From assembly GCA_035460505.1 (NCBI GenBank), contig DATHWP010000091.1, positions 14,554 through 78,553 of the forward strand: a DNA stretch of 64,000 nucleotides. The letters run 5' to 3'. Below are positions 7,943-54,170 of this stretch, piece after piece. Position 1 is the first letter of the stretch; every line of letters begins with the position of its first letter. A program made the position numbers and the translations under genes. Under the pieces are notes generated by a model, which was not told the origin of the DNA, made no database searches, and saw nothing but the letters and a program-made list of their open reading frames with translations. Source of the stretch: Methyloradius sp. (GTDB lineage: Bacteria; Pseudomonadota; Gammaproteobacteria; Burkholderiales; Methylophilaceae).

Positions 7943-9622
7943 ATGATCCGTCAAACCATTTCTGTCTTTCGTGACTTAGGCCGCATACGCGAGATTACTG
8001 GCGTGCTCATGCGCTATGGTTGGGATGATATTGCCAAGCGTCTGGGCAAGCGCAGCTTTATTGGCTGGGCTGGCAAAGCACTAAGCGCCGATGTACCGCC
8101 AGAGATCATGAATCTGCCGCCAGAGGTGAGAGTACGTTTGGCGATTCAAGATTTAGGGCCCACTTTCGTAAAACTTGGACAAGTGCTTGCGACCAGGCCA
8201 GATATTTTCCCGCCGCACTGGATTACTGAGTTCTCTAAGCTACAAGATCAAGTACCACCTGTACCTTTTGAAGAGTTATTGCCCGAACTTGAAAAAGCGC
8301 TGGGTAAATCGCCTTTTGAAGTATTCAAGGATTTCCAGGAAGTACCAATCGCTGGTGCTTCAATTGCCCAAGTGCACCGTGCGAAATTGCAAGATGGCAC
8401 GGATGTCGTGGTTAAAATTCGTCGTCCAAATGTGCAAGAAAGTATCGATGCCGATTTACGCCTGTTGTCTCATTTAGGTCGGTTGATTGAATCTGAAGTC
8501 GAGGAAGTCAGGCGTTTTCAACCAGGCAAGATCATTGCCCAATTTTCAAAATCGCTCAAACGTGAGTTGGATTTAGGGCTTGAAGGCAGAAGCACCGAAC
8601 GCTTTTCCAGAAATTTTGCAACCGATGAAAATGTAAAGTTTGCCCAAATCTATTGGGATTACTGTGCAGATGGCGTGCTGGTGATGGAGCACATTGATGG
8701 CATTTCTGGCCATGCGATTGAAGAAGCAAGAATGGCTGGTCTGGATTTAAAACTGCTGGCAGAGCTCGGTGCAAAAACTGTATTGAAAATGGTGCTGATC
8801 GATGGGTTCTTTCATGCAGACCCACACCCAGGCAACCTTTTCTATCTGCCTGGAAACCGTATTGCGATTATTGACTGCGGCATGGTGGGGCGCATTACGC
8901 TCGATAGACGCGGTGAAATTGCAGATTTGTTGGCGGCACTGGTTTCACGAGATATCGATGCCTTACGCGATATTCTGATTGTGTGGTCGGGTGATGCCAA
9001 TGTGGACGAAGCTAAGCTGGGCGCAGATGTGGATGAATTCATCTGCAACTACGATAATGCACCACTCAAGCATGTGCGCTTTAGTGCTTTGCTGAACGAC
9101 CTCACAACCATTATGCGCGAGAATCATCTTGCTGTTCCGCCAGATTTAACCATGTTGTTCAAGGCCTTAATTACCTTAGAAGGGCTTGGTCGCCAGCTAG
9201 ATCCAGACTTTCAGATCGTTAGTTTTTTAACCCCGTTCGTTAAAAAAATCATTATTGATCGCTATATGCCAAGCGCCTTGTTTAAGCGCGGTAAGCGCGG
9301 TGCAAACAGCCTGTTTGATTCGATCACTGGTTTGCCTGGCGATGTATCCATGTTGCTGCGAGAGGCAGGCCGTGGCAGGCTTAAAATCAATCTTGATCTC
9401 AAGCGGCTCGATCACTTTGGGCACCAACTTGATCACAGCACCAATAGACTCACCATGGCCATGATAGTGGCCGCCCTGATTATCGGTTCTTCTATTGTTA
9501 TGACAGTGAAAGGTGGGCCTACTATACTTGGATTGCCAGCGTTTGGTTTTATCGGATTTTTCTTTGCATTTTGTATTGGGTTTTTGCTGGTGATCTCGAT
9601 TTGGCGATCAGGTCGAGACTGA
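7943..9622 (+). CDS. AarF/ABC1/UbiB atypical kinase family protein with C-terminal membrane helices
   Basis: LGPTFVKLGQ, ASIAQVHRA, VVVK, FFHADPHPGN, IDCGMVG. Confidence 0.92.
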   Translation: MIRQTISVFRDLGRIREITGVLMRYGWDDIAKRLGKRSFIGWAGKALSADVPPEIMNLPPEVRVRLAIQDLGPTFVKLGQVLATRPDIFPPHWITEFSKLQDQVPPVPFEELLPELEKALGKSPFEVFKDFQEVPIAGASIAQVHRAKLQDGTDVVVKIRRPNVQESIDADLRLLSHLGRLIESEVEEVRRFQPGKIIAQFSKSLKRELDLGLEGRSTERFSRNFATDENVKFAQIYWDYCADGVLVMEHIDGISGHAIEEARMAGLDLKLLAELGAKTVLKMVLIDGFFHADPHPGNLFYLPGNRIAIIDCGMVGRITLDRRGEIADLLAALVSRDIDALRDILIVWSGDANVDEAKLGADVDEFICNYDNAPLKHVRFSALLNDLTTIMRENHLAVPPDLTMLFKALITLEGLGRQLDPDFQIVSFLTPFVKKIIIDRYMPSALFKRGKRGANSLFDSITGLPGDVSMLLREAGRGRLKINLDLKRLDHFGHQLDHSTNRLTMAMIVAALIIGSSIVMTVKGGPTILGLPAFGFIGFFFAFCIGFLLVISIWRSGRD

Positions 9623-9642: not shown

Positions 9643-9691
9643 GGGATTGTTTTGGGGCAGACCAATAATTAACCCGCACCAAATGAGTGCG
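9643..9691 (+). promoter_or_regulatory. Tandem NtrC-type enhancer boxes; the strong box lies inside a 15-bp inverted repeat (9665-9701) that may also terminate the kinase gene
   Basis: CGCAC-CAAATGA-GTGCG (9675-9691) fits GCAC-N7-GTGC; weaker site ending TGGGGCA (9643-9659) starts 32 bp upstream. Confidence 0.65.
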
Positions 9692-9753: not shown

Positions 9754-9768
9754 TGGCATGCGCTTTGC
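9754..9768 (+). promoter_or_regulatory. Sigma54 (-24/-12) promoter of the ATP-grasp/alpha-E/Anbu operon
   Basis: TGGCATGCGCTTTGC = GG-N10-GC, close to consensus TGGCACG-N4-TTGC. Confidence 0.8.
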
Positions 9769-9781
9769 GTGGAACTAGGCT

Positions 9782-11206
9782 ATGGATACTGCAAATAAAC
9801 GCCCTTTTGATGAAATGCAGCTAGCCAACGATACGGTGCGTGACATTTACGCGCTCTATGCTGAATGGCTGCGCGATGTTCCACTTGCTCAACTTGAGAG
9901 CAAACGGTTAGAAGCCGAACTCCTGTTCCGTCGAGTTGGTATTACCTTCAACGTGTATGGTGAAACCGCAGGTGCCGAGCGCCTAATTCCATTTGATGTG
10001 GTGCCGCGAATACTGGCAGCCGATGAATGGAGCAAGCTTTCTGATGGCGCCATCCAGCGCGTCAAAGCGCTCAATATGTTCCTGCATGATATTTATCATG
10101 ATCAGGAAATCATCAAGGCTGGCATTGTGCCCGCTTCAGTATTGACCAATTCGCAGTACCGCCCCGAGATGCAAGGCATTGACGTGCCAAACAATATTTA
10201 CGCGCATATCGCGGGTATTGATATTGTACGCACTGGCGAGAATGATTTTTACGTGCTGGAAGACAATCTACGTACACCTTCAGGTGTTTCGTACATGCTT
10301 GAAGACCGCAAGATGATGATGCGGCTTTTCCCTGATTTGTTCAGACGCTATTCCATCGCCCCAGTTGAGCATTATCCACAAGTGCTGCTGAATAACCTGC
10401 GTGCTGTGGCTCAACCTGGCGTAACAGACCCCGTGGTTGCGCTGATGACCCCAGGCGCCTATAACAGCGCCTATTTTGAGCATGCTTTCTTAGCCCAGCA
10501 AATGGGCATTGAACTGGTTGAAGGGCAAGATCTATTCGTCCGTGATAATGCCGTGTATATGCGCACGACTGAAGGCCCTAAAAAAGTCGATGTCATCTAT
10601 CGTCGTATTGATGATGATTTCATTGATCCGCTGGCGTTTAAAGCAGACTCTATGCTGGGCGTTCCAGGCTTGTTATCTGTCTATCAAAATGGTGGCGTCA
10701 CGCTTGCTAACGCTGTTGGTACAGGGGTGGCAGATGACAAGGCTATCTACATTTATGTGCCAGAGATGATTCGTTATTACTTGGGTGAAGAACCGATACT
10801 AGCTAATGTGCCGACTTATCAGTTGAGCAAAGAAGACGATTTGAAGTATGTGTTGGCGCACTTGCCTGAACTGGTCGTGAAAGAAGTGCAAGGCTCAGGC
10901 GGTTACGGCATGCTGGTTGGTCCTGCAGCCACCAAAGCTGAGATTAAAGAATTTACCTTGCGTATAGTTTCCAACCCGTCCAACTATATTGCCCAACCTA
11001 CATTGGCTCTATCTACCTGCCCTACCTTGGTCGAGCAGGGACTTGCGCCACGCCATGTTGATCTGCGTCCGTTTGTGTTGTCTGGCAAGGCCGTCACCCT
11101 TGTGCCTGGCGCGCTGTGCCGTGTGGCCTTGCGTGATGGTTCGCTGGTGGTTAATTCATCACAGGGTGGTGGTACTAAAGATACATGGGTGCTTAACCAT
11201 GCCTAA
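9782..11206 (+). CDS. Circularly permuted type 2 ATP-grasp protein
   Basis: GITFNVY, ERLIPFD, VLEDNLRTPSGVSY, SAYFEH, DVIYRRIDD, GSGGYG, RHVDLRPF, VVNSSQGGGTKDTWV. Confidence 0.93.
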   Translation: MDTANKRPFDEMQLANDTVRDIYALYAEWLRDVPLAQLESKRLEAELLFRRVGITFNVYGETAGAERLIPFDVVPRILAADEWSKLSDGAIQRVKALNMFLHDIYHDQEIIKAGIVPASVLTNSQYRPEMQGIDVPNNIYAHIAGIDIVRTGENDFYVLEDNLRTPSGVSYMLEDRKMMMRLFPDLFRRYSIAPVEHYPQVLLNNLRAVAQPGVTDPVVALMTPGAYNSAYFEHAFLAQQMGIELVEGQDLFVRDNAVYMRTTEGPKKVDVIYRRIDDDFIDPLAFKADSMLGVPGLLSVYQNGGVTLANAVGTGVADDKAIYIYVPEMIRYYLGEEPILANVPTYQLSKEDDLKYVLAHLPELVVKEVQGSGGYGMLVGPAATKAEIKEFTLRIVSNPSNYIAQPTLALSTCPTLVEQGLAPRHVDLRPFVLSGKAVTLVPGALCRVALRDGSLVVNSSQGGGTKDTWVLNHA

Positions 11207-11235: not shown

Positions 11236-12183
11236 ATGTTAAGTAGAACCGCTGATCACCTGTACTGGATGGCGCGCTATATTGAGCGCGCTGAGAATAT
11301 GGCGCGCGTGCTTGATGTCACAGCGAATATGTCACTGATTACCAACCCTGCAGATCAGACTGAAGCTGCTTTGTGGCGCCCAGCTTTGCAGATTTGTGGC
11401 GATGTTGTCGCATATGAAGAAGCTTATGGCGAATGCACTGCTGCTAATGTCATCAAGTTTCTGACCATGGATGACAATAACCCATCAAGCATCTACAGCA
11501 CACTTCGCAGCGCACGTGAGAATGCGCGTGCGGTGCGTGTTGCCATGACCTCTGAAACTTGGGAAAGCATCAACACGCTTTGGTTGGAATTCAGTCAATT
11601 TATAGGTGCGGACTTTTCAAAAAATGGCCTTCATGAGTTCTGTGAATGGGTGAAAGCACGCTCTCATCTGTTCCGTGGCGTTTCTTTCGGTACGATGTTG
11701 CGCGATGATTCTTTCCGCTTTTTGCGTTTGGGCTCGTTCATTGAACGTGCTGACAACACTGCCAGAATCCTGGATGTGAAATACCATATTTTGCAGCCGA
11801 TAGATGAAGAAACTGGTGGCGTGGATTACTACGCCTGGAGTGCGGTGTTGCGCTCTGTCTCTTCGTTCCAGGCCTATCAAAAAGTGTTCAGAGATACCAT
11901 TGACCCACAAAAAGTAGCTGAGATGATGGTATTGAGAAGTGATATGCCACGCTCTTTGCATGCTTGCTATGAGGAGATAGTGTCTATCGTCCAACAGCTT
12001 TCGGATCGTCGTCCAACAGAATGTAAGCGACTCTCAGGCCAGCTACTTTCATCATTGCGCTACGGCAAAATGGAAACCATTTTCGAGCAGGGTCTGCATG
12101 AGTTTCTGGCTGATTTTCTGAGAAGTAACAATAGGCTCGGTGGCGAGATTCAACGTACTTTTTTCAACGCTGCTGAAGTTTAG
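11236..12183 (+). CDS. Alpha-E domain protein
   Basis: MLSRTADHLYWMARYIERAENMAR, ARENAR, IERADNTARILDVKY, PRS. Confidence 0.93.
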   Translation: MLSRTADHLYWMARYIERAENMARVLDVTANMSLITNPADQTEAALWRPALQICGDVVAYEEAYGECTAANVIKFLTMDDNNPSSIYSTLRSARENARAVRVAMTSETWESINTLWLEFSQFIGADFSKNGLHEFCEWVKARSHLFRGVSFGTMLRDDSFRFLRLGSFIERADNTARILDVKYHILQPIDEETGGVDYYAWSAVLRSVSSFQAYQKVFRDTIDPQKVAEMMVLRSDMPRSLHACYEEIVSIVQQLSDRRPTECKRLSGQLLSSLRYGKMETIFEQGLHEFLADFLRSNNRLGGEIQRTFFNAAEV

Positions 12184-12262: not shown

Positions 12263-12430
12263 ATGACCATCAAACCTGAAATCCTGTCTAATCCAATTCC
12301 AAAAAAGACTGTGCAGCAGCCTGATACTAGGGATACACTGCCAGAAAAGCAAATACAAACACGCGATCAGCCTGCGTATCCAAACAGCAAAGTCAAAATA
12401 CGTCAGGCAGAAGAAGCGCAACAGCAGTAA
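12263..12430 (+). CDS. Small 55-aa Gln/Lys/Pro-rich peptide ending in QQQ (absent from the ORF track)
   Basis: Manual translation MTIKPEILSNPIPKKTVQQPDTRDTLPEKQIQTRDQPAYPNSKVKIRQAEEAQQQ*; fills most of a 290-bp gap on the operon strand; Shine-Dalgarno weak. Confidence 0.55.
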   Translation: MTIKPEILSNPIPKKTVQQPDTRDTLPEKQIQTRDQPAYPNSKVKIRQAEEAQQQ

Positions 12431-12473: not shown

Positions 12474-13706
12474 ATGAACGCAACTACTATTGATTCATTA
12501 CGCTTTACCCGTCACGGTGATAAACAAAACTCGGCTTTTTTTGAAGAATATCTAGTCCGTCTTCTCGAAGAGCGCGACCAACTCGGCCTCACCGCGCTGA
12601 TACACGAGATTGACGCCTTGATGATCACGGTGGACCCCGGGCATTCAATCCAGTACATCGCCGAACTGTCATTGATGACTTCATACCATTATCTGGTGAC
12701 CCTAGAGAGTGAGTCACACTGGACGCATATCTTGCGCATTGATCTTAATTCACCAGACATTTTGTTGCGTGAGGTGAAAGACCCGAATTTGCGTGGTATT
12801 TTCCGTTCATTGAACGAGGTTTATCCAGTTGGCGCCAAGAAACCTAATAGCCGCTACATGGGTGAAATCATCCGCGTGAGTAATTTGCACGATGTGGTCA
12901 AGCTTCAGCAAGCGCGTGAATTCCGTTTTTTCTCACAAGATGAAGTACGTAAAATGGAATTTCCTGGCAACATTGCGGTGAGTAAGCCTTCACCTTATAC
13001 CCATAATGTCGTTGGTTATCTTGAACGTAAACCTAGTGAGCTTCGTGTCTACGCACTTGGTATGAGCGTGATTAATCCAGAGGTACAAGCTGCCTACGAA
13101 GCTTCGAAAACGCTGCAGAAAAAGCTGAATTTTGATGAATTGTTGTTGCCGATCGATCACTTGGCAACGCGTGTCTATAGCCAAAATCGTGAAGTGGCAA
13201 TCTTGGAGTATTTGTCATTGACCAGTTACCACTTCTGGGGCGCCTACAATATTTTTGACCAGAACTCTTCGACTAACGTGACCAAGAGCGTGCATGATTT
13301 ACCGGAATCAAAAAGCCCAGCCAAGGTATTTACCGCCAACAACACGCCATATTTCGTCAGCCATTTAGAACATCTACCTTCGCCTACGGAAACATTCGTC
13401 CGTAACTATGGGCCACGCTTGCACCACATGGCGATTGCGGTGAAAGATGGCGAGACCGCAGGGCAGGAGAATATCGAATTCGTGGTCAAGGCCATTGCTG
13501 ACCAAGGTAAAGGTTTCTTGCTTGATGTGATTGGTTCTAAAGAAGAAGGCTTGAAACAGATATTCTCAAATGCTTCGGAACACTCATCACTGATTATTGA
13601 ATACGTGCAACGCTTTGGCGATTTTGACGGTTTCTTTACTCAAGATAACGTGGCTAAGCTGACTGAAGCTGCAGGCCATGAAGAATCACTCAATTACGCT
13701 GTGTAG
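12474..13706 (+). CDS. Divergent HPPD-like (two-domain VOC) putative Fe(II) enzyme of unknown function
   Basis: IDHLA (H229), SPTETFVRNYGPRLHHMAI (H318), LKQIFS, IIEYVQR (E376), then GF..N: same order as the motifs of 4-hydroxyphenylpyruvate dioxygenase. Confidence 0.65.
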   Translation: MNATTIDSLRFTRHGDKQNSAFFEEYLVRLLEERDQLGLTALIHEIDALMITVDPGHSIQYIAELSLMTSYHYLVTLESESHWTHILRIDLNSPDILLREVKDPNLRGIFRSLNEVYPVGAKKPNSRYMGEIIRVSNLHDVVKLQQAREFRFFSQDEVRKMEFPGNIAVSKPSPYTHNVVGYLERKPSELRVYALGMSVINPEVQAAYEASKTLQKKLNFDELLLPIDHLATRVYSQNREVAILEYLSLTSYHFWGAYNIFDQNSSTNVTKSVHDLPESKSPAKVFTANNTPYFVSHLEHLPSPTETFVRNYGPRLHHMAIAVKDGETAGQENIEFVVKAIADQGKGFLLDVIGSKEEGLKQIFSNASEHSSLIIEYVQRFGDFDGFFTQDNVAKLTEAAGHEESLNYAV

Positions 13707-13729: not shown

Positions 13730-14467
13730 ATGACGTATTGTGTCGCTGTTTTATTACCTGAAGGCCTAGTGCTTGCCTCTGATACCCGCACCAATGCTGG
13801 TGTTGATCAGGTTGCCGTATTTCCAAAAATGCATGTGTTTGAAGTGCGCGGCGAAAGAGTGATTACACTGCTCACATCAGGCAATCTCGCTATCACCCAA
13901 TCGGTAGTTAACCGCTTACGTGAGGCAGTGCGGACGGGCGCTGATAAAACCCTGGAAACAGCCGCTAGCATGTTTGAGGCCGCCACACTGGTGGGTGATG
14001 AAATTCGTGCTGCATTTGAGCGCGATGCATCACACCTTAAAAACCAGAATTCAGAATTTAGTGCCAATATCCTGCTCTCAGGCCAAATCAAAGGCGAAGC
14101 GCCGCGTCTGTTTCATATTTACTCAGCAGGCAATTTTATTGAGAGTAGCGATGAGACTCCGTATTTTCAGATTGGTGAAACCAAGTACGGTAAACCGATT
14201 ATTGATCGCGTAGTGAACCACAAAAGCGACATGATGGATGCAGTGAAATGTGTATTGATTTCGTTTGATTCAACTATCCGCAGTAACTTGTCGGTCGCTG
14301 CGCCTATAGACCTTATGCTGTACCACACTGATAGTTTCAATGCTGATTCACGTCAACGCATTACAGAAAAAGACGAGTATTACACCACTATCCGCCAAGG
14401 TTGGTCTGATGGTTTGAAGAAGGTCTTTAGTGCTTTGCCAAACCCAACTTGGACATTTGGTAAGTAA
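13730..14467 (+). CDS. Anbu proteasome-type (Ntn-hydrolase) peptidase
   Basis: N-terminal MTYC (Thr nucleophile), ASDTRTNAGVD, SGNLAITQ, QIGETKYGKPIIDR, DSTIRSNLSV. Confidence 0.93.
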   Translation: MTYCVAVLLPEGLVLASDTRTNAGVDQVAVFPKMHVFEVRGERVITLLTSGNLAITQSVVNRLREAVRTGADKTLETAASMFEAATLVGDEIRAAFERDASHLKNQNSEFSANILLSGQIKGEAPRLFHIYSAGNFIESSDETPYFQIGETKYGKPIIDRVVNHKSDMMDAVKCVLISFDSTIRSNLSVAAPIDLMLYHTDSFNADSRQRITEKDEYYTTIRQGWSDGLKKVFSALPNPTWTFGK

Positions 14468-21839: not shown

Positions 21840-22718
21840 TTAACTATTGATCAGCTTTACCGAGACCTCAACATCCAGCGTATGCGAGCCACCACCCAGC
21901 ACAATACCGTGCATGGGTGATACATCACTGAAATCACGGCCCCAGGCTACGGTGATATGTTCGTTTTGCACGAGGCAATTATTGGTGGGGTCAAAATCTA
22001 TCCAGCCATAAACTGGGCAATAAACTGATACCCAGGCGTGCGATGCATCAGCACCCACCATGTCTTCCTGGCCTGGTGCGCGATGTGTGAGTATGTAGCC
22101 GCTGATATAGCGGCAAGATAATCCAAGGCTACGTAGGCAGCCTATCATCAGGTGTGAAAAGTCTTGGCACACACCGTGTTTGTTTTCTAACACTTCGCTT
22201 AACGGGGTGTCGATATGCGTGGCATCTGGGTCAAAATCGAACTCATTGTAGATGCGTTGCGTGAGGTCAAACGCCGCTTGTAGGAGTGATTTGTTGGGGC
22301 TGAAACTTAAGCGTGCGTAGTCAGCAAGTGCATCGCTGCAAGCCACATAAGGCGAGCCAAATAAAAAGGCCTGCGCATCCTGGTTTTGTCCATTCAGCAT
22401 ACGCAGATTGTCTCTGACTGTTTCCCAAGCTGGGCTTTGATACAGATCACCAAGTTTAAGCCGTGGCATCAGCTGCACTTCAAAACTTGAATTAACAGCA
22501 AGCTCGCGATGTGGCGTGACCATGGCGAAATAATCAGTGATATTGCCAAAGTAATCGTGTTTTTTTAATGATTCATTGGGTGGTGGTGTGATCTCAAGCG
22601 TATGGGTCAGGCAGGTCTGCGCATAAAAATCACGCGGTGACATGTGCAGCAATTGCTGCGAGAGCATTACTGGACCTTCATAGTAGTAGTGGGTGTTGTG
22701 TAAAACGCGATAACGCAT
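21840..22718 (-). CDS. Transglutaminase family protein (Bact_transglu_N plus core)
   Basis: Cys-His-Asp triad motifs GVCQDFSH, ASHAW, FDPTN; GRDFSDV. Confidence 0.93.
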   Translation of the reverse strand: MRYRVLHNTHYYYEGPVMLSQQLLHMSPRDFYAQTCLTHTLEITPPPNESLKKHDYFGNITDYFAMVTPHRELAVNSSFEVQLMPRLKLGDLYQSPAWETVRDNLRMLNGQNQDAQAFLFGSPYVACSDALADYARLSFSPNKSLLQAAFDLTQRIYNEFDFDPDATHIDTPLSEVLENKHGVCQDFSHLMIGCLRSLGLSCRYISGYILTHRAPGQEDMVGADASHAWVSVYCPVYGWIDFDPTNNCLVQNEHITVAWGRDFSDVSPMHGIVLGGGSHTLDVEVSVKLINS

Positions 22719-22733
22719 GGGTATTATTTGAGC

Positions 22734-25343
22734 CTAAAAATTGAATATCTCTTGCTGCGATATTTCTTGGGCAGAGAGTTCTTGAAGTTGCCCAGAGTAA
22801 CTGAAAAAACGGTGACTGAGGCTGTCAGACAGGGCAATGCTGGCATTGTAGGTTTCATCCAGCCAAGCAATCAACTCTGTATTGCCTTGGCGGAACACCA
22901 CGTCAGGGTCAAATAGGCGCAATGCGGCTAAACGGCCAATAAACTGGCCTTCGCCGCCGCTGCCGTAGGTGGCCGTGATTTGGGCGAGATATTTAATCAG
23001 GCCTTTGAGCTGGAACACCATGGCGTTTGGGTTGTTCTCATCCATCAGGATTAAGTCTAACATCGGCAGCCACTCGGCTTGCGAGGAATATCGATAGCGG
23101 TAGGTGACAATGCTATCAGTTAGTTCTAGCACCCAATCCAAATTGCTCTCTGCGGGCATTTTCAATGCACGGCTTAATAGGGTACACAAAAACTGCAAGC
23201 GCTCGATACGACGGCCAATCGACATGAAGCGCCAGCCTTGGTCACGCGTCATGCCATCCAGCGTGAAGCCTGATAATGTGACTAGGGATGCCGTGGTTTC
23301 ATCTAGTATCAATAAGCCCTCGCTGAGTGTGGCTGATTCAGGGCTGTCGGTAAAACGCTGCGCCATCTGGTTAATGTTGCGCCAGTTGTCGCTGGAAAGT
23401 CGTTCGCGCAGGTTAAATGCGAGGGTCTGGAAACCTTGGATATGGCTGGCCAAGCTTGGCGAATCAGATGAAAAAATGCCCGAAACCAGCAGTGACTCGA
23501 TTAACTCATCACTCAGTTCGGGTTCTGCCAAAGAGCCTAATGCTTCACTAGATTTAATCCGTGGATTTTCTTCGTTATCCGCAGACATCAGCCCATACCA
23601 GTTGCACAGCCCTTGTATGGTTGGCCATTCCATTGCGCGATGCTCGGTGGTGAATTCCATGAAACAGTGGATCGCTGTGCGTAGCAATCTCGAAAAATGG
23701 TGATTGCGTACCGCATAGCGACCAAACCAGAACAGGTTTTCTACCATGCGGCTAGAAAGATTGGCATTGCCTTTAACCAAGTCGCGGCTAGATGATGTCT
23801 TGCGCAACAGGCTGCGGTAGCTAGTCACATAAGGCGCTGTTACCCAGGTATCTTTGCTGGTGCCACCATTTTGCATGGTGATCACACGTTCGTCTTGACC
23901 GCTAGCGACACGCGTTAACCCACCCGGCATGACCACGTAACCTTGTGGTGTGGCGCAGGCGTAAAGGCGTAGACCTACAGCGAGTGAGCCAAGTGCTGGT
24001 TCATCTTTGCCAGTCTCTGCATTCCAAACGGGGGCTTGCGAAATCTTTACCTGCTCTTGCGCCACATAGTTTTGTGGATTGGCACAGAGTTTGGCAATTA
24101 GCGCGTCACGCTCAGCGTGGTTCAGGTCTTCACCAAAAATTGGTTGCTCGTTGATTTGTGGGAATGCTGGTTTTATGACTAAGGTATGCAGATTTTCAAT
24201 CACCGTTTCAAGCGCATGCGGCTCACCACACCACCATGTGGCGACGGATGGCATCAATAGTGATTCGCCAAGCAAACGGCGGCAGAGGCTAGGTAAAAAT
24301 CCGAGCAAAGCACCAGTTTGCAGCAAATTAGAACCTAAGCTATTAGCAATCAGTACATTACCGCGGCGTGCTACTTCAGTAAGGCCTGCGATACCGAGTA
24401 CGGAAATGGAATTGAGTTCCAGCGGGTCGCAGAAGTCATCATCCAGACGCCGCAATATGGTGTGTACTGGTTTAAGGCCAGACAGTGTTTTTAGCCAGAC
24501 TACACCATTGCGCACGGTGAGGTCATTACCCTGTACCAGTGGAAAGCCCAGATAGCCTGCGAGATAAGATTGCTCGTGGTAGGTTTCGTTGTAAGGGCCT
24601 GGGGTGAGCAGTACTGTGAGTGGTTGCTCACCATCGCCCAACGCTTTTATTTTTGGGTTACTGCGAGACTGATTAGCCGCACAGACTCTACCCCAATAGG
24701 CAAGGCTGTCGCGCATAGTGGCAAAAAATCCACTCAGGCGCTGTACGTTCAGATCACGAAATAACTCGGGGAATGCGCTGGAGATAATCAGGCGGTTTTC
24801 CAGCGCATAACCTGCGCCAGAGGGCGCTTGTGTACGATCTGCCACTACCCACCAGCGGCCATCGGGCGAGCGTGCCAAATCAACTGCATAAGTGTGTAGA
24901 GAGTAATTATCTGGGTACTTAATGCCATGACAAGGCCGCAAAAATCCAGCATGGCCATGTATTAGGGCTGGCGGAAGAATGCCTTCTTTTAGCAGGTTTT
25001 GGTCACCATACACATCGTTAAGTATGGCGTTAAGTAAGGTCGCTCGTTGGATAACGGCGGCTTCTATCCCTGCCCATTCTTCATGCGGTAGGATAAATGG
25101 AAGTACATCAAGTCCCCAAGGCCGCTGCAAGCCTTTTGTATCTGCATACACATTGTAGGTGACACCATTTTCACGGACTTGGCGTTGGATAGATTCTACG
25201 CGCTCACGCATTTGCGCAGGACTCACTTGCTCAAGCGTGCTAATCAGCTCTTGCCAGTGCGGGCGAGGTTTGCCTGATGACTCAAGCAACTCATCGTGGC
25301 GGTCTTGATGGCCAGGATAACTATTCAAAATCGATTCCAACAT
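22734..25343 (-). CDS. Circularly permuted type 2 ATP-grasp / alpha-E fusion protein
   Basis: GVTYNVY, ADRTQAPSGAGYALENR, ILRRLDDDFCDPLEL, MPGGLTRV, SKDTWV, then SRMVENLFWFGRY and GRRIERL; start at ATG 25343 inferred (track start 25370). Confidence 0.9.
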   Translation of the reverse strand: MLESILNSYPGHQDRHDELLESSGKPRPHWQELISTLEQVSPAQMRERVESIQRQVRENGVTYNVYADTKGLQRPWGLDVLPFILPHEEWAGIEAAVIQRATLLNAILNDVYGDQNLLKEGILPPALIHGHAGFLRPCHGIKYPDNYSLHTYAVDLARSPDGRWWVVADRTQAPSGAGYALENRLIISSAFPELFRDLNVQRLSGFFATMRDSLAYWGRVCAANQSRSNPKIKALGDGEQPLTVLLTPGPYNETYHEQSYLAGYLGFPLVQGNDLTVRNGVVWLKTLSGLKPVHTILRRLDDDFCDPLELNSISVLGIAGLTEVARRGNVLIANSLGSNLLQTGALLGFLPSLCRRLLGESLLMPSVATWWCGEPHALETVIENLHTLVIKPAFPQINEQPIFGEDLNHAERDALIAKLCANPQNYVAQEQVKISQAPVWNAETGKDEPALGSLAVGLRLYACATPQGYVVMPGGLTRVASGQDERVITMQNGGTSKDTWVTAPYVTSYRSLLRKTSSSRDLVKGNANLSSRMVENLFWFGRYAVRNHHFSRLLRTAIHCFMEFTTEHRAMEWPTIQGLCNWYGLMSADNEENPRIKSSEALGSLAEPELSDELIESLLVSGIFSSDSPSLASHIQGFQTLAFNLRERLSSDNWRNINQMAQRFTDSPESATLSEGLLILDETTASLVTLSGFTLDGMTRDQGWRFMSIGRRIERLQFLCTLLSRALKMPAESNLDWVLELTDSIVTYRYRYSSQAEWLPMLDLILMDENNPNAMVFQLKGLIKYLAQITATYGSGGEGQFIGRLAALRLFDPDVVFRQGNTELIAWLDETYNASIALSDSLSHRFFSYSGQLQELSAQEISQQEIFNF

Positions 25344-25465
25344 TCCTCCGACCACCTTTACTACCCTCAATGCTCAGTCCATGAACTCTTTAGAATTCTG
25401 GCTATATTGATAGAAGAGCTTTTATATTTGTTTTATCCGTCAGACAAGCGCCTGAAAGTATTAAA

Positions 25466-25514: not shown

Positions 25515-28500
25515 TTAAACATCTTGCCAGCGCAGGTCTAGCGTAAAAGGAAAGCGGGGATTCCGTTGTTCTTCTTCAATTTGCCTTGCGCCTGGCGTGT
25601 GACCATGCCCCCAGAAGCGTGTAAAGCGACGTGCTTCTGCCTCTAGCGCATTGACGGGGAAGGTCGCGTAATTGCGGCCACCAGGATGCGAGACATGATA
25701 AGTACAGCCACCAATTGCGCGGCCACTCCAGGTGTCGACCAAGTCAAATACGAGAGGGGCATGCGGTTTGATGGTTGGGTGTAGGGCAGACCAAGGATCC
25801 CATGCGCGGAATCTCACGCCAGCCACATATTCACCAGCAACGCCTGTTGGTTGTAGCGGCAACGGACGGCCATTACAGGTGACGATGTGGCGCGAGTCAG
25901 TCAGGCCGCGCACTCGCAATTGCATGCGTTCGACGGACGAATCTACATAGCGTGCAGTACCACCGCCTGCCATTTCTTCGCCCAGCACATTCCATGGCTC
26001 AATCGCCTGCCTGAGTTCAAGCTCCACGCCTTCATAAGCCACTGTGCCATACCGAGGAAAGCGGAATTCGATGAATGGGTCAAACCAGCGCTTTTCAAAT
26101 TTGTAGCCAGCGCGATTTAAATCCTTCACTACATCGGCCATATCTTGTGCAATGAAGTGGGGCAGCATCCAGCGGTCATGTAGCTCAGTACCCCAATGGA
26201 TGAGCTTGCCTTGATATGGCTCGCGCCAGAAACGTGCAACGAGTGCACGCAGTAGCAGCATCTGCAGCAAGCTCATGCGTGCATGCGGTGGCATTTCGAA
26301 GGCGCGGAATTCAACCAGGCCAAGACGGCCAGTCGGGCCATCTGGCGAATAAAGCTTATCAATCGAGAATTCAGCGCGGTGGGTGTTGCCAGTCAGGTCA
26401 ACGAGTAGGTTACGTAGCAACCTATCAACCAGCCACGGCCGTTCGCTTTCTGCGGTATCTGGCAGTACTTTATCCATTTGCTGAAAAGCAATCGCCAGTT
26501 CGTAAAGATTGTCATCACGTGCCTCATCTACCCGTGGTGATTGGCTGGTAGGTCCGATGAACGTGCCTGAAAACAGGTAAGACAGTGCAGGGTGATTTTG
26601 CCAATAACTGATCAGGCTTTTTAGCACATCAGGGCGGCGTAGCATCGGGCTATCTGCAGCAGTTGCGCCACCTAGGGTGGCATGATTGCCGCCACCAGTC
26701 CCAGTATGGCGACCATCCAGCATGAACTTTTCTGTACCGAGCCGCGTTTGGCGGGCTTCTTCATAGAGGATGGTCATCTTATCGACCAGTTCACGCCAGG
26801 TACTGGATGGATGAATGTTCACTTCAATCACGCCAGGGTCAGGTGTGACACTCAGCACCTTGATGCGCGCATCGCGCGGCGGGGTGTAGCCTTCAATCCA
26901 TAATTTAAGCTTGAGTTCAGCAGCGGTTTGTTCAACCGTGGCAATCAGCGCTAGATAATCTTCAATGCGCACAACGGGTGGCATAAACACATGCAGGCGA
27001 CCATCGCGCACTTGCACACACAGTGCTGTAAACACAACTTCGCGCGGCAGCGGTTTTTCCTTGAGTATTCTTTTGGCAACTATGCCTGGCGTAGTGGCAT
27101 CTGGTAATTCAGCCAGTTTTGCAAACGGGTCAACAGGAAACGCAGGGTCCACATCTTCAGGTAGCAGCTCTGGGAGCGAGGCCAGCGGTAGTCGCAACCC
27201 CATAGGTGAGTCCCCAGCCAGCAAATACAGGTGTTCGCGCTTAAGTGGCCACTTACTTGTGAGCCAGTTGCTGACATTCTTTTTGCGAGTTTCCTCGGGT
27301 TTGATCGGCATGACATAGCCAACAGTTTCATTCAGGCCAGTCTCCAGAAGCTTTGCCAGCCTGCGGCGTTCTTCGCTATCTTTTAAATTCGCTTTGAGCG
27401 GATCCACATTTTCTGGCAGGCGTAATTCCATCACCGATTGCTGCAGCACATCCTCATAAGCAGGAATCAGGCAGGCAGTTGGCAGCCCTAAATTAGTCGC
27501 GAGTTTTGCCGAGAATTGCTCGGCATGCGCTGCAGTATATTGATCTGATATTTTTTCATCGGAAAAAAGTGATGCGTCTTGCCATATTGGCTTACCGTCT
27601 ACTCTCCAGTAGATATTGATTGCCCAGCGCGGCAATGGCTCGCCTGGGTACCATTTACCTTGCCCATAATGCAGTAAACCGCCAGGCGCAAAATGTTGCT
27701 TAAGCTTGAGTGAAAGCTCGCCTGCCATCTCGCGTTTTTTAGCACCGTGGGCGGCTACATTCCACTCGGCACCTTCCATATCGTCAATCGAGACAAAAGT
27801 CGGCTCACCGCCTTGCGTCAGCCGTACATCTTGTTTCTTGAGATCAGCATCTACTTTCTGGCCAAGCTTATCGATTCTCAGCCAGTCAGCTTCGCTGTAA
27901 GGCTTGGTGACGCGTGGGTCTTCGTGAATCCGAGTGACTGACATCTCATGGGTGAAAATCACCTCGGCTCTATCTGACATGCCTGTCACAGGCGCAGCAG
28001 AAGATGGGGTTGCAGTGCAGGCCAGCGGAATATGGCCTTCGCCTGCCATCAGGCCAGAGGTTGCATCCAGACCAATCCAGCCTGCACCTGGAATATAAAC
28101 TTCAGCCCAGGCATGCAAATCAGTGAAATCTACTGCTGTGCCGCTTGGACCATCCAAAGATTTGATGTCAGCCGCTAATTGGATTAAATAGCCAGACACG
28201 AAGCGCGCGGCCAGCCCAAAGTGGCGCATGATCTGCACCAACAGCCATGCGCTGTCACGGCAAGAGCCGGTGCGGTTGGTCAGGGTTTCTTCCGGCGTTT
28301 GCACACCTGGCTCCATGCGTACCAGATAGCCGATATCACCCTGTACCATCTGGTTAAGTGCGACCAGAAAATCACCAATACCAAGGTTTTGGCTAGAAAA
28401 TTTCTGCTCTGCCGCATTCAGCCAGTTCTGTAGTAAGGGGCCAATCGGGTCAGCCTTTAAATATGGGCTGAGTTCATGTTCGAGTTGTTCTGTGTACTTG

Positions 28501-28811
28501 AATGGATAAGTCTCGGCATATTTTTCAACGAAGAAATCAAACGGGTTGATGACTGTCATGTCTGCAACCAGATCGACCGTGAATTCAAGCTCACGCACCT
28601 TTTCAGGGAATACAAAGCGCGCGATGTAATTGCCGTAAGGGTCTTGCTGCCAGTTAATAAAATGCTTTTCGGGAATGACTGAAAGTGAATACGACAATAT
28701 GGGCGTGCGCGCATGCGCTGCGGGCTTTAACCTGACTTCATGCGGTGAGAGGCTGACTAGGCGATCAAACTGGTAACTGGTTTTATGGTGCAACGCGACA
28801 CGAATCGCCAT
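25515..28811 (-). CDS. Large transglutaminase / DUF2126 (putative amidoligase) fusion protein
   Basis: WQQDPYGN, GSCRDSAW, DLHAW, LDATSG; LTQGGEPTFVS, TPDPGVIEVN, GTGGGNH, GNTHRAEF, VEFRAFEMPPH. Confidence 0.92.
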   Translation of the reverse strand: MAIRVALHHKTSYQFDRLVSLSPHEVRLKPAAHARTPILSYSLSVIPEKHFINWQQDPYGNYIARFVFPEKVRELEFTVDLVADMTVINPFDFFVEKYAETYPFKYTEQLEHELSPYLKADPIGPLLQNWLNAAEQKFSSQNLGIGDFLVALNQMVQGDIGYLVRMEPGVQTPEETLTNRTGSCRDSAWLLVQIMRHFGLAARFVSGYLIQLAADIKSLDGPSGTAVDFTDLHAWAEVYIPGAGWIGLDATSGLMAGEGHIPLACTATPSSAAPVTGMSDRAEVIFTHEMSVTRIHEDPRVTKPYSEADWLRIDKLGQKVDADLKKQDVRLTQGGEPTFVSIDDMEGAEWNVAAHGAKKREMAGELSLKLKQHFAPGGLLHYGQGKWYPGEPLPRWAINIYWRVDGKPIWQDASLFSDEKISDQYTAAHAEQFSAKLATNLGLPTACLIPAYEDVLQQSVMELRLPENVDPLKANLKDSEERRRLAKLLETGLNETVGYVMPIKPEETRKKNVSNWLTSKWPLKREHLYLLAGDSPMGLRLPLASLPELLPEDVDPAFPVDPFAKLAELPDATTPGIVAKRILKEKPLPREVVFTALCVQVRDGRLHVFMPPVVRIEDYLALIATVEQTAAELKLKLWIEGYTPPRDARIKVLSVTPDPGVIEVNIHPSSTWRELVDKMTILYEEARQTRLGTEKFMLDGRHTGTGGGNHATLGGATAADSPMLRRPDVLKSLISYWQNHPALSYLFSGTFIGPTSQSPRVDEARDDNLYELAIAFQQMDKVLPDTAESERPWLVDRLLRNLLVDLTGNTHRAEFSIDKLYSPDGPTGRLGLVEFRAFEMPPHARMSLLQMLLLRALVARFWREPYQGKLIHWGTELHDRWMLPHFIAQDMADVVKDLNRAGYKFEKRWFDPFIEFRFPRYGTVAYEGVELELRQAIEPWNVLGEEMAGGGTARYVDSSVERMQLRVRGLTDSRHIVTCNGRPLPLQPTGVAGEYVAGVRFRAWDPWSALHPTIKPHAPLVFDLVDTWSGRAIGGCTYHVSHPGGRNYATFPVNALEAEARRFTRFWGHGHTPGARQIEEEQRNPRFPFTLDLRWQDV

Positions 28812-40009: not shown

Positions 40010-40510
40010 TCAGTCTTTAATCTTGCCGATGCTATCAATTTCTTCCTTGATTTTCATGTTATCCAACTTCTCAATAGGTAGCGCCGCAAAGAGCTTGATG
40101 CGATTTTCAAGATAGCCCGCAATCTTGCGGAATGCCGCTAATTTCTCCTCATCCGTACCTTCTACAGCCGCTGGGTCTTCAACGCCCCAATGTGCTGTCA
40201 TCGGTTGTCCAGGCCAGTATGGACAAACTTCACCAGCGGCGTTATCGCATACGGTAAATACAAAATCGAGAAAAGGTGCACCTTCAACCGTAAACTCATC
40301 CCAGCTTTTGCTGCGTAGGCCATTGGTAGATAAGCCTCTGGCTTCAAGCAATTTAAGTGCAAATGGATTGACTGTCCCATTTGGGTGGCTACCAGCGCTG
40401 TAGGTTTTGAATTTGCCTTTACCCCAGTGTTCCATGAGTTTTTCAGCCAGAATACTGCGCGCAGAGTTGCCTGTGCAGAGAAAAAGTACGTTATAGATTT
40501 TTTGATCCAT
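40010..40510 (-). CDS. arsC: Arsenate reductase, LMW-PTP fold
   Basis: LFLCTGNSARS, SAGS, TVCDNA, CP, HWGVEDPA; next to arsR and acr3. Confidence 0.88.
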   Translation of the reverse strand: MDQKIYNVLFLCTGNSARSILAEKLMEHWGKGKFKTYSAGSHPNGTVNPFALKLLEARGLSTNGLRSKSWDEFTVEGAPFLDFVFTVCDNAAGEVCPYWPGQPMTAHWGVEDPAAVEGTDEEKLAAFRKIAGYLENRIKLFAALPIEKLDNMKIKEEIDSIGKIKD

Positions 40511-40864
40511 TTATGCGGATTCCTTGGTTTGATTTGCTGCGGCAGGACAGCAGAGGTTTTGAGTGACGCAATCATCGCTTGGGTTTTGGCAGCAGTTCTC
40601 AGTCAGGTAAGCAATTAAGCCATTCATCATGCTGTAATTGGCTTTGTATAAGATGGTGGTGCCTTTACGCTCAGTAGATGCTAAATCTGCATGCCGTAAC
40701 TGCTGTAGATGAAATGACAGGGTGGCATTGGGTACCCCAAGTTTTTCACCAATAGCCCCAGCAGCCATGCCTGCCGCCCCTGCTTGTACTAGCAGGCGAA
40801 ATATATCCAAGCGTGTTTCTTGTGCAAGTGCATCGAGTGCAGCAACAGCAATTAACTTTTCCAA
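40511..40864 (-). CDS. arsR: ArsR family repressor with C-terminal Cys pairs
   Basis: ALAQETRLDIF, ATLSFHL, YLTENCC. Confidence 0.9.
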   Translation of the reverse strand: MEKLIAVAALDALAQETRLDIFRLLVQAGAAGMAAGAIGEKLGVPNATLSFHLQQLRHADLASTERKGTTILYKANYSMMNGLIAYLTENCCQNPSDDCVTQNLCCPAAANQTKESA

Positions 40865-40902
40865 TTCAGCTCCTTTTTGCCTGTATCAATCATTTGTCTT
40901 TC

Positions 40903-40928
40903 TATATTTCCATATTTATGGAAATATA
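40903..40928. promoter_or_regulatory. ArsR operator (12-2-12 inverted repeat) between divergent arsR and acr3
   Basis: TATATTTCCATA-TT-TATGGAAATATA perfect dyad. Confidence 0.8.
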
Positions 40929-40964
40929 TGCGCTTGTCAAATTAAATTTTGTTGAAGGTGGCTC

Positions 40965-42035
40965 ATGAGTGCGCAATGTGAAGTGATTGTAAAAGAGGCA
41001 AGTAATCAAAAAATTGGCTTTTTTGAGCGCTATCTCACGGTTTGGGTATTTGTTTGTATTGCAGTTGGTATTGGCTTAGGTCATTACATGCCAAGAACTT
41101 TTGTTGCCTTGGGGGAAATGAAAATCGCTGAGGTTAATCTGCCAGTAGCAGTTTTAATCTGGCTGATGATTATCCCCATGCTGCTTAAAATTGATTTTCA
41201 CGCGCTTTCAGGCGTAAAGCAGCATTGGAAGGGTATAGGGGTCACCTTGTTTATCAACTGGGCAGTCAAGCCTTTCTCAATGGCGTTCTTGGGTTGGCTA
41301 TTTATTCGTGTGGTATTTCATGATTGGTTGCCAGTCGAGCAGATTGATTCATACATTGCAGGTTTAATATTGTTGGCTGCCGCACCTTGCACTGCCATGG
41401 TATTCGTCTGGAGTAACTTGACTGACGGCGAGCCGCATTTCACCCTTAGCCAGGTGGCGCTCAATGATTTGATTATGGTATTTGCATTTGCGCCGATTGT
41501 CGCTTTGCTGCTCGGTTTGTCATCAATCACAGTGCCGTGGGGAACACTGCTTTTATCGGTACTGCTTTACATCGTAATCCCTGTTGTCATTAGCCAGCTT
41601 ATGCGTATGCTACTGATCTCTCAAGGCAGTGAGGTTACCCTTAATGGCCTGCTTAAAGTACTGCAACCGTTGTCACTGAGTGCATTGCTAGCTACTTTGG
41701 TTTTACTTTTTGGCTTTCAAGGGAGACAAATTATTAATCAGTCTGCAGTCATTGCAATGCTAGCCGTGCCGATTTTGATACAGGTTTATTTCAACTCTGG
41801 CCTGGCTTATTGGCTAAATCGAAAGTTTGGCGTGGCGCATTGTGTCGCAGGCCCATCCGCATTGATAGGTGCCAGTAATTTCTTTGAGCTGGCCGTGGCC
41901 GCGGCTGTTAGTCTGTTTGGTCTGAATTCAGGTGCAGCTTTAGCAACGGTGGTGGGAGTTTTGATTGAGGTGCCAGTCATGCTATCGGTCGTTAAAATAG
42001 TCAACCAATCCAAAGGATGGTATGAAAAGGCATGA
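40965..42035 (+). CDS. acr3: ACR3 family arsenite efflux transporter
   Basis: FERYL, NWAVKPF, APCTAMV, GASNFFELAVA, VGVLIEVPVML. Confidence 0.95.
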   Translation: MSAQCEVIVKEASNQKIGFFERYLTVWVFVCIAVGIGLGHYMPRTFVALGEMKIAEVNLPVAVLIWLMIIPMLLKIDFHALSGVKQHWKGIGVTLFINWAVKPFSMAFLGWLFIRVVFHDWLPVEQIDSYIAGLILLAAAPCTAMVFVWSNLTDGEPHFTLSQVALNDLIMVFAFAPIVALLLGLSSITVPWGTLLLSVLLYIVIPVVISQLMRMLLISQGSEVTLNGLLKVLQPLSLSALLATLVLLFGFQGRQIINQSAVIAMLAVPILIQVYFNSGLAYWLNRKFGVAHCVAGPSALIGASNFFELAVAAAVSLFGLNSGAALATVVGVLIEVPVMLSVVKIVNQSKGWYEKA

Positions 42036-45080: not shown

Positions 45081-45096
45081 TGGCATAGCTATTGCT
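45081..45096 (+). promoter_or_regulatory. Sigma54 promoter of the nasT / nitrate assimilation region
   Basis: TGGCATAGCTATTGCT near-consensus; NtrC-like half sites TGGTGCG and TGCACCA around 44966-44981. Confidence 0.85.
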
Positions 45097-45132: not shown

Positions 45133-45708
45133 ATGCTCCGAGTTTTACTGGTAGATAACCATGCGGAGCGAGCAGCTCCACTCACGCAATTGTTATCAGA
45201 TGCAGGGTATAACGTGATTGGGCGATTGTCTGATACGGCAAACTTACATGATGCAGTGAGTGCGTTGCAGCCCGATGTAGTGATTATAGATACAGAGTCG
45301 CCCAGCAGAGATACGTTGGAACACTTGATTGTGATGAATTCGAATGCACCGCGGCCGATTGTGATGTTTACGCATGATGGTGATAGAGCCAAAATTCGAG
45401 AGGCCACAAAAGCAGGTGTAAGTGCTTATGTGGTCGGTGGTTTAGCTGGTGATCGGTTACGGCCGATTATGGATGCAGCGATAGCAAGATTTGAAGAATT
45501 TAAAAGTTTGCGTCTTGAATTAAATGAGGCAAACAGCAAGCTGAGTGAGCGCAAGGTGGTAGAAAAAGCCAAAGGCTTACTCATGAAACAGCGTGGCATT
45601 AGCGAAGATGAAGCTTATGGCATGTTGCGAAATATGGCGATGAAACAGAACATACGCTTGGCAACGTTAGCCGAGCAAGTGGTACAAGCAGCAAAGTTGC
45701 TGTTTTAA
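45133..45708 (+). CDS. nasT: REC-ANTAR transcription antiterminator NasT
   Basis: IDTESPSRDTLE, RPIVMF, AGVSAYVV, ERKVVEKAKGLLM...EDEAY. Confidence 0.9.
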   Translation: MLRVLLVDNHAERAAPLTQLLSDAGYNVIGRLSDTANLHDAVSALQPDVVIIDTESPSRDTLEHLIVMNSNAPRPIVMFTHDGDRAKIREATKAGVSAYVVGGLAGDRLRPIMDAAIARFEEFKSLRLELNEANSKLSERKVVEKAKGLLMKQRGISEDEAYGMLRNMAMKQNIRLATLAEQVVQAAKLLF

Positions 45709-45730
45709 GAATTAGAAATTTGGATTAAAT

Positions 45731-45881
45731 GGTTACATCTACCCAACGGCGGGAGATGAAGTAACCAAAAGTTTAGTAATAAATAACTAGTAGTACACAA
45801 GCAATAACGAGCCAGTGCTGGCTCACCGGACAAAGGCGTCCTTGCTGCGAAATTTATTTCGTAAGCAGGACGCCTTTTTTT
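45731..45881 (+). promoter_or_regulatory. ANTAR-binding RNA leader with overlapping intrinsic terminator
   Basis: Hexaloop hairpins CCC-AACGGC-GGG, GAGCC-AGTGCT-GGCTC and GGAC-AAAGGC-GTCC (all A1/G4); the last overlaps terminator AGGCGTCCTTGCT...AGCAGGACGCCT plus T-run. Confidence 0.85.
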
Positions 45882-45911
45882 ATTTTGTGTTTTGAGACTT
45901 AGGAGTAATAC

Positions 45912-47213: not shown

Positions 47214-47239
47214 GCTTCAAATTACAAGGAAATTAAACG

Positions 47240-48157: not shown

Positions 48158-48167
48158 GGGGCACACC

Positions 48168-49016: not shown

Positions 49017-49121
49017 GAAGTAAAAAAGCCCGTCGGTCAGGACGGGCCCCGCAACTCAATGTAGCAAAAAGATACACCAAATTACTAGTCACCCTTAATC
49101 GCTAAAAAAAGGAGTAACACC

Positions 49122-50510: not shown

Positions 50511-50541
50511 GCAACGCGCAGAAGATTAACGGAGCTCCCTC

Positions 50542-51306: not shown

Positions 51307-51372
51307 GTTTAACAAATATAGACCCCAACAAATAGTAAACAGATATTTCTGAAAGAAACGCTGGAGTAGAAC

Positions 51373-53820: not shown

Positions 53821-53845
53821 CGAGAAAAATGTAATAAGGATCACT

Positions 53846-54154: not shown

Positions 54155-54170
54155 GAGCTGGGAATATTAA

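Follow-up and report, generated by a model that had tools for sequence, protein, structure and literature searches.

According to bioRxiv 2020.01.30.927905 there are three established reactions for the class of 2-oxo acid oxygenases considered here, those of 4-hydroxyphenylpyruvate dioxygenase (HPPD), hydroxymandelate synthase (HmaS) and the hydroxyglutarate synthase HglS. The Anbu operon codes for a circularly permuted ATP-grasp (CP-ATP-grasp) ligase, an alpha-E protein and the proteasome-like subunit Anbu, and its function is given as unconfirmed in PMC5666114 and PMC6376114. The word dioxygenase is absent from the main text of both papers. A stretch of 64,000 nucleotides of Methyloradius sp. 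(assembly GCA_035460505.1, contig DATHWP010000091.1; "the window") carries such an operon with one additional gene inserted before Anbu:

12474..13706, + strand: open frame for a two-domain vicinal oxygen chelate (VOC) protein of HPPD/HmaS fold, 410 amino acids (aa), identified by sequence, profile and structure-model evidence

This HPPD-fold protein appears to represent a fourth, unannotated family of the oxygenase class with at least 2895 sequences, whose predicted pocket has the HPPD frame and, within it, the arginine of HglS. It is predicted to work like HmaS and HglS, yet by membership criteria lies outside both HPPD and DUF1338. Its gene is the sole recurring extra gene beside the Anbu/CP-ATP-grasp operon in the loci compared below and provides a new handle on the cluster, as the substrate of the enzyme would tell what chemistry the operon serves.

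Fold and family

The protein features the motifs I227-D-H229, R315-L-H-H318-M-A, L360-K-Q-I-F-S, I374-I-E376-Y-V-Q-R and G386-F-F-T-Q-D-N-V-A-K-L-T. The original prediction had recognized the first four as HPPD-like and arranged in the HPPD order. They are found at the positions claimed and the likeness is more than chance, because profile, profile-profile and AlphaFold2/Foldseek/VIA-align searches all return HPPD. The 410-aa sequence alone has no Pfam match above noise, is assigned to no Pfam or NCBIfam family and finds no match in the PDB. A profile built from 111 sequences (alignment A2, in which 46 of the 111 rows are at least 80% identical to the query) matches rat HPPD among PDB chains (E 1.7e-4) and also glyoxalase-type and methylmalonyl-CoA epimerase chains (E 3e-5 to 4e-4). 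Profile-profile comparison to 11 bacterial HPPD-family proteins from genomes gives a probability of 91% (E 1.1e-6).

The AlphaFold2 model computed from the 111-row alignment (predicted local distance difference test 94.2, predicted template-modelling score 0.92) is a two-domain VOC fold of the HPPD/HmaS type, in agreement with the fold originally proposed. Human HPPD and HmaS are its top Foldseek hits (E 2e-17 to 5e-17). VIA-align against 48,161 representatives ranks HmaS (Z 26.2) and HPPD (Z 25.3) ahead of extradiol dioxygenases (Z 16-18), rice HglS (Z 12.4) and methylmalonyl-CoA epimerase (Z 9.6). A second VIA-align comparison gives Z 28.2 for human HPPD (root-mean-square deviation 3.5, 323 residues aligned), 27.9 for HmaS 2r5v (3.4, 307 aligned) and 26.2 for AcmP1 7YVV.

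Relatives at E ≤0.001 number at least 2895 in the protein collection, and 254 cluster representatives match at E 0.001. The best 120 relatives are 81-100% identical; those with a name are Methylophilaceae proteins, nearly all annotated as hypothetical. The carriers of this highly conserved gene are bacteria living on methanol, iron or sulfur, whereas plasmids and viral contigs yielded no relatives. The label "lpg1639 family Dot/Icm effector" borne by a Methylobacillus orthologue finds no such match in NCBIfam and is probably a mislabel of the source. Our literature search, which did not reach most subscription papers, found no publication on the family. A proteome table of Methylobacillus flagellatus (PMC9988556) reports the orthologue Mfla_0394 (Q1H4C2) with 7 peptides, and detects also Mfla_0391 and the alpha-E protein Mfla_0392.

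The protein shares with HPPD (TIGR01263; PDB 3ISQ, 1CJX) the two-domain fold, the His-His-Glu order and a C-terminal helix, but is only 14-17% identical to it and scores 14 bits against TIGR01263, whose curated cut-off is 277. No hmgA, fahA or maiA-type domain was detected in the 55 window open reading frames (ORFs) of at least 100 aa and the small ORF, as had been noted, and models of HPPD, HgmA and FahA find nothing in the genome of the window (88.6% complete). With the aromatic-ring network also replaced (see below), these results bear out the assignment to a subfamily distinct from ordinary HPPD and placed outside tyrosine catabolism. PF07063, the HglS/DUF1338 family, has no match in the protein at E 1 and none in the 111 relatives at E 0.01.

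Predicted active site

13158..13160, + strand: H229, first predicted metal ligand, aligned to the His of the HPPD IDH motif
13170..13172, + strand: R233, arginine four residues after H229 (H+4), predicted anchor of a far carboxylate, spaced like HglS Arg74 (H70-G-A-I-R74)
13422..13427, + strand: H317, at the position of HPPD Gln307, and H318, second predicted metal ligand (alignment)
13599..13601, + strand: E376, third predicted metal ligand (alignment)

The metal triad had been described as intact. Among the A2 rows with a residue at the position, H229 is conserved in 102/103, H318 in 95/100 and E376 in 89/92, in the order of HPPD, and in the model they fall on the HPPD-equivalent strands E224-233, E315-323 and E374-380. 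At the position of R233, 99 of 102 rows have the arginine, and H317 recurs in 95 of 99.

The profile-profile alignment identifies Q362, F364 and N392 as the retained equivalents of HPPD Gln379, Phe381 and Asn423. HPPD Gln293, Gln307 and Phe424 are replaced by P304, H317 and V393, and a stretch of 30 residues is deleted. T287 aligns to HPPD Asn282 and V285 to the proline of the HPPD P-I-N-E strand, both with low posterior. The C-terminal motif of HPPD was thought to have been replaced; the alignment shows instead that G-F-F-T-Q-D-N-V is homologous to HPPD G-F-(gap)-G-E-G-N-F, and that it has retained G-F and the Asn but neither the G-x-G hinge nor the Phe. Substitutions at Asn282, Gln307 and Gln293 lower the efficiency of AtHPPD 160-, 99- and 3722-fold (PMC6750108). 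These residues belong to the Ser267-Asn282-Gln307-Gln293 network of HPPD, which is not preserved here, so that HPPD activity is unlikely.

HmaS (2R5V) and AcmP1 (7YVV), tied with HPPD as best structural match, share with the protein an aliphatic residue after the C-terminal Asn and the predicted decarboxylation-hydroxylation. They differ in that no biosynthetic gene cluster surrounds the HPPD-fold gene and that its product has a polar pocket containing an Arg. This Arg is the link to HglS/FLO7 (DUF1338, PF07063; 6W1G, 6W1K), with which the protein shares an H-x-A-x-R strand, seen as H70-G-A-I-R74 in HglS chain 6W1G, D-H-I-A-L-R in 3LHO and D228-H-L-A-T-R233 here. HglS Arg74 makes a salt bridge to the far carboxylate of 2-oxoadipate and the R74A mutant is dead (bioRxiv 2020.01.30.927905). 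By its spacing on the same strand, R233 would bind a far carboxylate in the same manner, and the pocket likely accommodates a small diacid such as 2-oxoglutarate. R233 narrows the different 2-oxo acid of the original suggestion to a candidate whose far end is a carboxylate or an amide. The aliphatic 2-oxo-diacid chemistry of HglS serves as model, although HglS belongs to lysine catabolism and the HPPD-fold gene to a probably nitrogen-regulated context, and although the protein is of HPPD-type architecture.

Genomic linkage to the Anbu operon

The unit has the gene order CP-ATP-grasp, alpha-E, 55-aa ORF, HPPD-fold gene, Anbu:

9782..11206, + strand: CP-ATP-grasp ligase (PF14403, E 1e-164)
11236..12183, + strand: alpha-E protein (PF04168, E 5e-104)
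12263..12430, + strand: 55-aa ORF with a Gln-rich tail, at the place of a lost transglutaminase, conserved in the genome G401
13730..14467, + strand: Anbu proteasome-like subunit, starting Met-Thr (PF00227, E 2.7e-6)

The ligase, alpha-E and Anbu genes follow the usual order of Anbu operons and are preceded by a predicted promoter of nitrogen type, features shared with the Anbu operon of PMC5666114 and PMC6376114. The locus departs from that arrangement by the insertion of the HPPD-fold gene before Anbu and, in this genus, by the 55-aa Gln-tailed ORF that stands instead of a transglutaminase.

Neighbourhoods were counted in 80 genome loci, the best of 549 that were confirmed and thus a sample biased to close kin. 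A gene of the system (CP-ATP-grasp, alpha-E, transglutaminase, Anbu or the amidoligase DUF2126) lies within 8 kb of the HPPD-fold gene in 65 of them, in at least six gene orders: 53/58 loci of the Methylophilaceae block and 12/22 loci of Gamma- and Zetaproteobacteria. No other neighbour recurs in both groups, as judged by eye from the clusters. Among 81 Methylophilaceae genomes, 41 have gene and ligase, 2 (G411 and G413) the gene only, 16 the ligase only and 22 neither, a decayed fragment in G520 being counted as absence; the gene is present in 28 of the 29 genomes of the family that are DUF2126-positive. In family f41 the gene is found in 7/16 ligase-positive and 0/35 ligase-negative genomes, assuming that its 51 genomes lie within those screened for the HPPD-fold gene. 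The ligase is encoded somewhere in 23 of 24 genomes (two duplicated) picked for a detached gene or for membership of f41, versus 94/201 across the phylum. The genomes in these counts are kin rather than independent and p-values overstate the association. The HPPD-fold gene is likely an accessory of the CP-ATP-grasp/alpha-E/transglutaminase/Anbu system, and the tie between enzyme and operon originally drawn from the window alone is borne out by the loci and by co-occurrence.

Several individual loci deserve mention. In the complete genome G520 (L207:6397-6558) the ligase is gone and all that is left of the HPPD-fold gene is a decayed fragment. In G413 (L209:4416-5794) the HPPD-fold gene is intact, but ligase and alpha-E are gone and the transglutaminase is mostly lost. 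A second operon type has two tandem Anbu genes (L029, L037, L046, L057, L062, L069, L079). No compensating gene recurs in 20 regions of ligase-positive, gene-negative f41 genomes. An ABC1/UbiB-type kinase gene (7943-9622) precedes the operon here and in 11/80 loci, probably as lineage synteny.

Predicted nitrogen regulation

Two motifs precede the operon, located with the sigma-54 and NtrC consensus sequences:

9675..9691, + strand: NtrC-like palindrome, about 105 nt upstream of the first codon of the operon
9754..9768, + strand: sigma-54 -24/-12-like promoter of the operon

The window has 4 sigma-54-like sites (0.96 expected), and the strict pattern occurs upstream of 31/58 CP-ATP-grasp genes versus 54/4000 random stretches. 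An NtrC-like palindrome with at least 10 of 14 matches is found in 24 of 28 orthologous leaders (random 303/2000) and with at least 11 in 13 of 28 (random 50/2000), many at -93 to -126. Detached copies of the HPPD-fold gene were scored with a sigma-54 matrix trained on sites upstream of ligase genes. A score of at least 10 is reached by 15 of 25 unit-leading copies of Methylophilaceae, mostly 38-60 nt upstream, one of the 25 (L030) being in fact operon-internal; the controls give 1/34 for operon-internal copies and 61/1600 for random stretches. Scans for sigma-70 promoters and terminators remained at chance level.

Expression of the ligase cluster requires NtrC in Burkholderia cenocepacia (PMC5491218) and goes up on nitrate in P. 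putida (PMC8050072), and Anbu rises under nitrogen limitation (PMC5666114, PMC6376114). It is likely from these motifs that the operon and the HPPD-fold gene are switched on by nitrogen starvation. Another sigma-54-like site of the window (45081-45095) belongs to a complete cluster for nitrate/nitrite assimilation (45133-56900), where it lies in front of the ANTAR regulator.

Gln-rich tails and the 55-aa ORF

Relatives have a 260-300-aa transglutaminase where the window has the 55-aa ORF. A transglutaminase between alpha-E and Anbu is missing here and in G401, the best match of the genome to the orthologues being about 29%. All 31 orthologous transglutaminases examined have at least four Gln in their last 12 residues, and the 55-aa ORF ends likewise. 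Its copy in G401 has the same start, length and stop, with 39/55 residues identical. Codon changes between both genomes are 16 nonsynonymous and 11 synonymous in the ORF, and 22 and 161 in the HPPD-fold gene. The ORF was found in one genus only (2 genomes). A frameshifted transglutaminase remnant was considered as its origin and rejected, as tblastn gives no match to 9 orthologues and just the position and the Gln tail agree.

Gln-rich tails are found in 33/77 transglutaminases, 14/68 alpha-E proteins, 4/47 Anbu and 0/90 HPPD-fold proteins. Some protein of the system bears one in 49 of the 68 loci with ligase and alpha-E, against a background of 6/1620 ORFs. Tail carriers are the transglutaminases of L013-L064, the alpha-E proteins of L187-L204 and the Anbu of L029, L062, L069 and L079. 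The tail thus moves between proteins of the system and may be its substrate or docking signal. The 55-aa peptide is plausibly such a tail, retained to serve the ligase system.

The original prediction had also considered a peptide-linked substrate made by the operon, a role for which the distribution of the 55-aa peptide gives no support. It cannot be the substrate of the family because it is genus-specific and stands at the transglutaminase position, while the pocket is kept across thousands of homologues, and because the HPPD-fold gene persists in G411 and G413, which have no ligase, and in the sister clade described next, where the operon is missing. A complex prediction of protein, peptide and Fe scored 0.10 (mark 0.32) and was not used as evidence.

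The sister clade

A sister clade of at least 1401 unannotated proteins (e.g. P0156 and P0159; loci L107-L186) is about 33% identical to the family. The quick tree that separates the two clades has long branches and serves solely to display them. The sister proteins keep the triad, an invariant H+4 Arg and H317, P304, T287, V285 and Q362, and often bear an N-terminal zinc-ribbon-like CxxC/CPxC motif. Their source records comprise archaea and bacteria (Thermoplasmata, Zixibacteria, Phycisphaerae, Bacillota) from sediment-type metagenomes. Of 119 immediate neighbours, 92 were scanned, repeats of the same synteny being omitted. Rubrerythrin, ferritin-like or AhpD-like genes flank the gene in 8 loci. 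In single cases a malic enzyme gene follows immediately (L183) or a Glu/Leu/Phe/Val dehydrogenase gene lies upstream (L139). That the pocket is the same in the absence of the operon suggests that the substrate is a free metabolite. With regard to O2 the evidence cuts both ways, and keeps an O2-independent reaction alive.

Proposed reaction and alternatives

We favour a Fe(II)/O2-dependent decarboxylating hydroxylase of a free 2-oxo-diacid, an assignment by analogy that we hold at somewhat less than even confidence. The predicted fold, the HPPD triad and the Gln379/Phe381/Asn423 equivalents would provide the frame. Following the chemistry of HPPD, HmaS and HglS, the 2-oxo acid would chelate Fe(II), O2 would attack and CO2 depart, and a ferryl species would then hydroxylate the carbon adjoining the new carboxyl. 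R233 would hold the second carboxylate in the manner of HglS Arg74, in a pocket that no longer has the aromatic-ring network of HPPD. A five-carbon chain is our guess, because 2-oxoglutarate accumulates under nitrogen starvation and because the host family has no 2-oxoglutarate dehydrogenase and can oxidise malate. Among such diacids 2-oxoglutarate is the most probable substrate, and its conversion to malate and CO2 is a tentative candidate for the particular reaction. DNA motifs that suggest control by sigma-54/NtrC, together with co-occurrence with the ligase operon, would place the enzyme in the nitrogen starvation response.

The metabolism of the host family is compatible with such a product. 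The dehydrogenase gene sucA is found in 0/81 Methylophilaceae genomes and Mqo in 76/81, and five genomes tested have malic enzyme in 4/5, NAD-malate dehydrogenase in 0/5 and SdhA over the cut-off in 4/5, so that malate would be usable. If malate is the product, the central-metabolism map of Methylophilaceae changes. In its widest form, which is improbable as a whole, the proposal would describe the first enzyme converting 2-oxoglutarate to malate with O2, closing the broken tricarboxylic acid cycle of dehydrogenase-less methylotrophs and draining the nitrogen-starvation signal, co-regulated with a ligase-protease system that acts on movable Gln-rich tails, one of them left as the free 55-aa peptide, while the sister enzyme of anaerobes would burn off O2.

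A number of observations weigh against the 2-oxo-diacid hydroxylase or its metabolic setting. The lineages of the sister clade are mostly anaerobic, and ligase-system genes are found in none of 80 sister-clade metagenome loci. In the profile search methylmalonyl-CoA epimerase scores no worse than HPPD. Mqo was not found in the genome of the window, and being near-universal in the family it does not discriminate. The HPPD-fold gene is lacking in 37/81 Methylophilaceae though all lack sucA. Conversely, sucA is present in 28/59 carrier genomes (10/10 of f41 and 18/22 of the non-Methylophilaceae locus genomes, two counted twice), which rules out a family-wide bypass of 2-oxoglutarate dehydrogenase. 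Beyond Methylophilaceae, 10 of the 22 other loci have no system gene nearby, and in Pseudomonadota the gene occurs in 11/401 genomes and the ligase in 94/201, most ligase-positive genomes being without the gene. Outside Methylophilaceae the sigma-54 matrix score reaches 10 in 3/19 detached copies and 8 in 4/19. HglS, finally, rejects 2-oxoglutarate (bioRxiv 2020.01.30.927905). The gene mqo was considered as a conserved neighbour and discarded, since it was seen in L233 only and beside the ligase in G528, which has no HPPD-fold gene.

The tight linkage to the system, in particular the co-occurrence with DUF2126, and the excess of Gln-rich tails, which makes glutamine chemistry central to that system, agree with a Fe(II)/O2 enzyme acting on a Gln-derived keto acid made by the operon. 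Candidates are 2-oxoglutaramate and a 2-oxoglutaryl group that is gamma-linked to a peptide, for example to one of the Gln-rich tails, and the 30-residue deletion could open the pocket. The original idea of a peptide-linked substrate, unsupported for the 55-aa peptide, survives in this wider form. We regard it as unlikely: the gene is intact without ligase in G411, G413 and the whole sister clade, the ligase system mostly has no HPPD-fold gene, and the 55-aa peptide is confined to one genus.

The pocket shared with lineages taken as anaerobes, the additional conserved His317 and the profile matches to methylmalonyl-CoA epimerase and glyoxalase point rather to a VOC metalloenzyme that would act on a dicarboxylate without O2, as an epimerase, isomerase, hydratase or thiol transferase, and in which H317 would serve as acid/base. 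Fosfomycin-resistance VOC enzymes indeed have a His-His-Glu site and do not use O2. However, the whole-chain structural neighbours are 2-oxo acid oxygenases followed by extradiol dioxygenases, epimerases remaining at Z ≤9.6, the Gln379/Phe381/Asn423 set of HPPD is retained, and oxygen-defence genes are often beside the sister-clade genes. Methylmalonyl-CoA epimerase and glyoxalase I carry a fourth protein metal ligand. Their profile match extends over the second His region, but they are of single-domain size, and no fourth protein ligand is seen here since V285 occupies the HPPD proline position (low posterior). An O2-independent reaction is doubtful.

A second, HPPD-derived hydroxyglutarate synthase converting 2-oxoadipate to 2-hydroxyglutarate would account for the H-x-A-x-R motif, and an HGLS cluster is among the Atlas look-alikes at 0.85, taken as a lead only. 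The absence of an HGLS Pfam match in the protein and its 111 relatives, the Z of 12.4 for HglS versus 26 for HmaS and the lack of recurrent lysine-degradation genes in the 80 loci (clusters judged by eye) make it highly improbable. An ordinary HPPD or hydroxymandelate synthase on 4-hydroxyphenylpyruvate is scarcely credible. The best structural matches and V393, which resembles the Ile of HmaS-type enzymes, are in its favour, but the TIGR01263 score is far below cut-off, the 88.6% complete genome yielded neither hmgA nor fahA, the ring-binding network is lost and a charged Arg lies in the pocket strand.

Other features of the window

A second cluster of the same system lies 8-15 kb away from the unit:

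21840..22718, - strand: transglutaminase-like protein (PF08379 and PF01841)
22734..25370, - strand: CP-ATP-grasp fused to alpha-E (domain search)
25515..28811, - strand: transglutaminase-DUF2126 amidoligase fusion (PF09899, 1332 bits)

The genome codes for two more tandem transglutaminase-like genes elsewhere (C83:33827-35503). A lower-GC stretch of the window at 40010-42035 has an arsenic-resistance-type trio composed of a low-molecular-weight phosphatase-like reductase, a small regulator and an SBF-family transporter.

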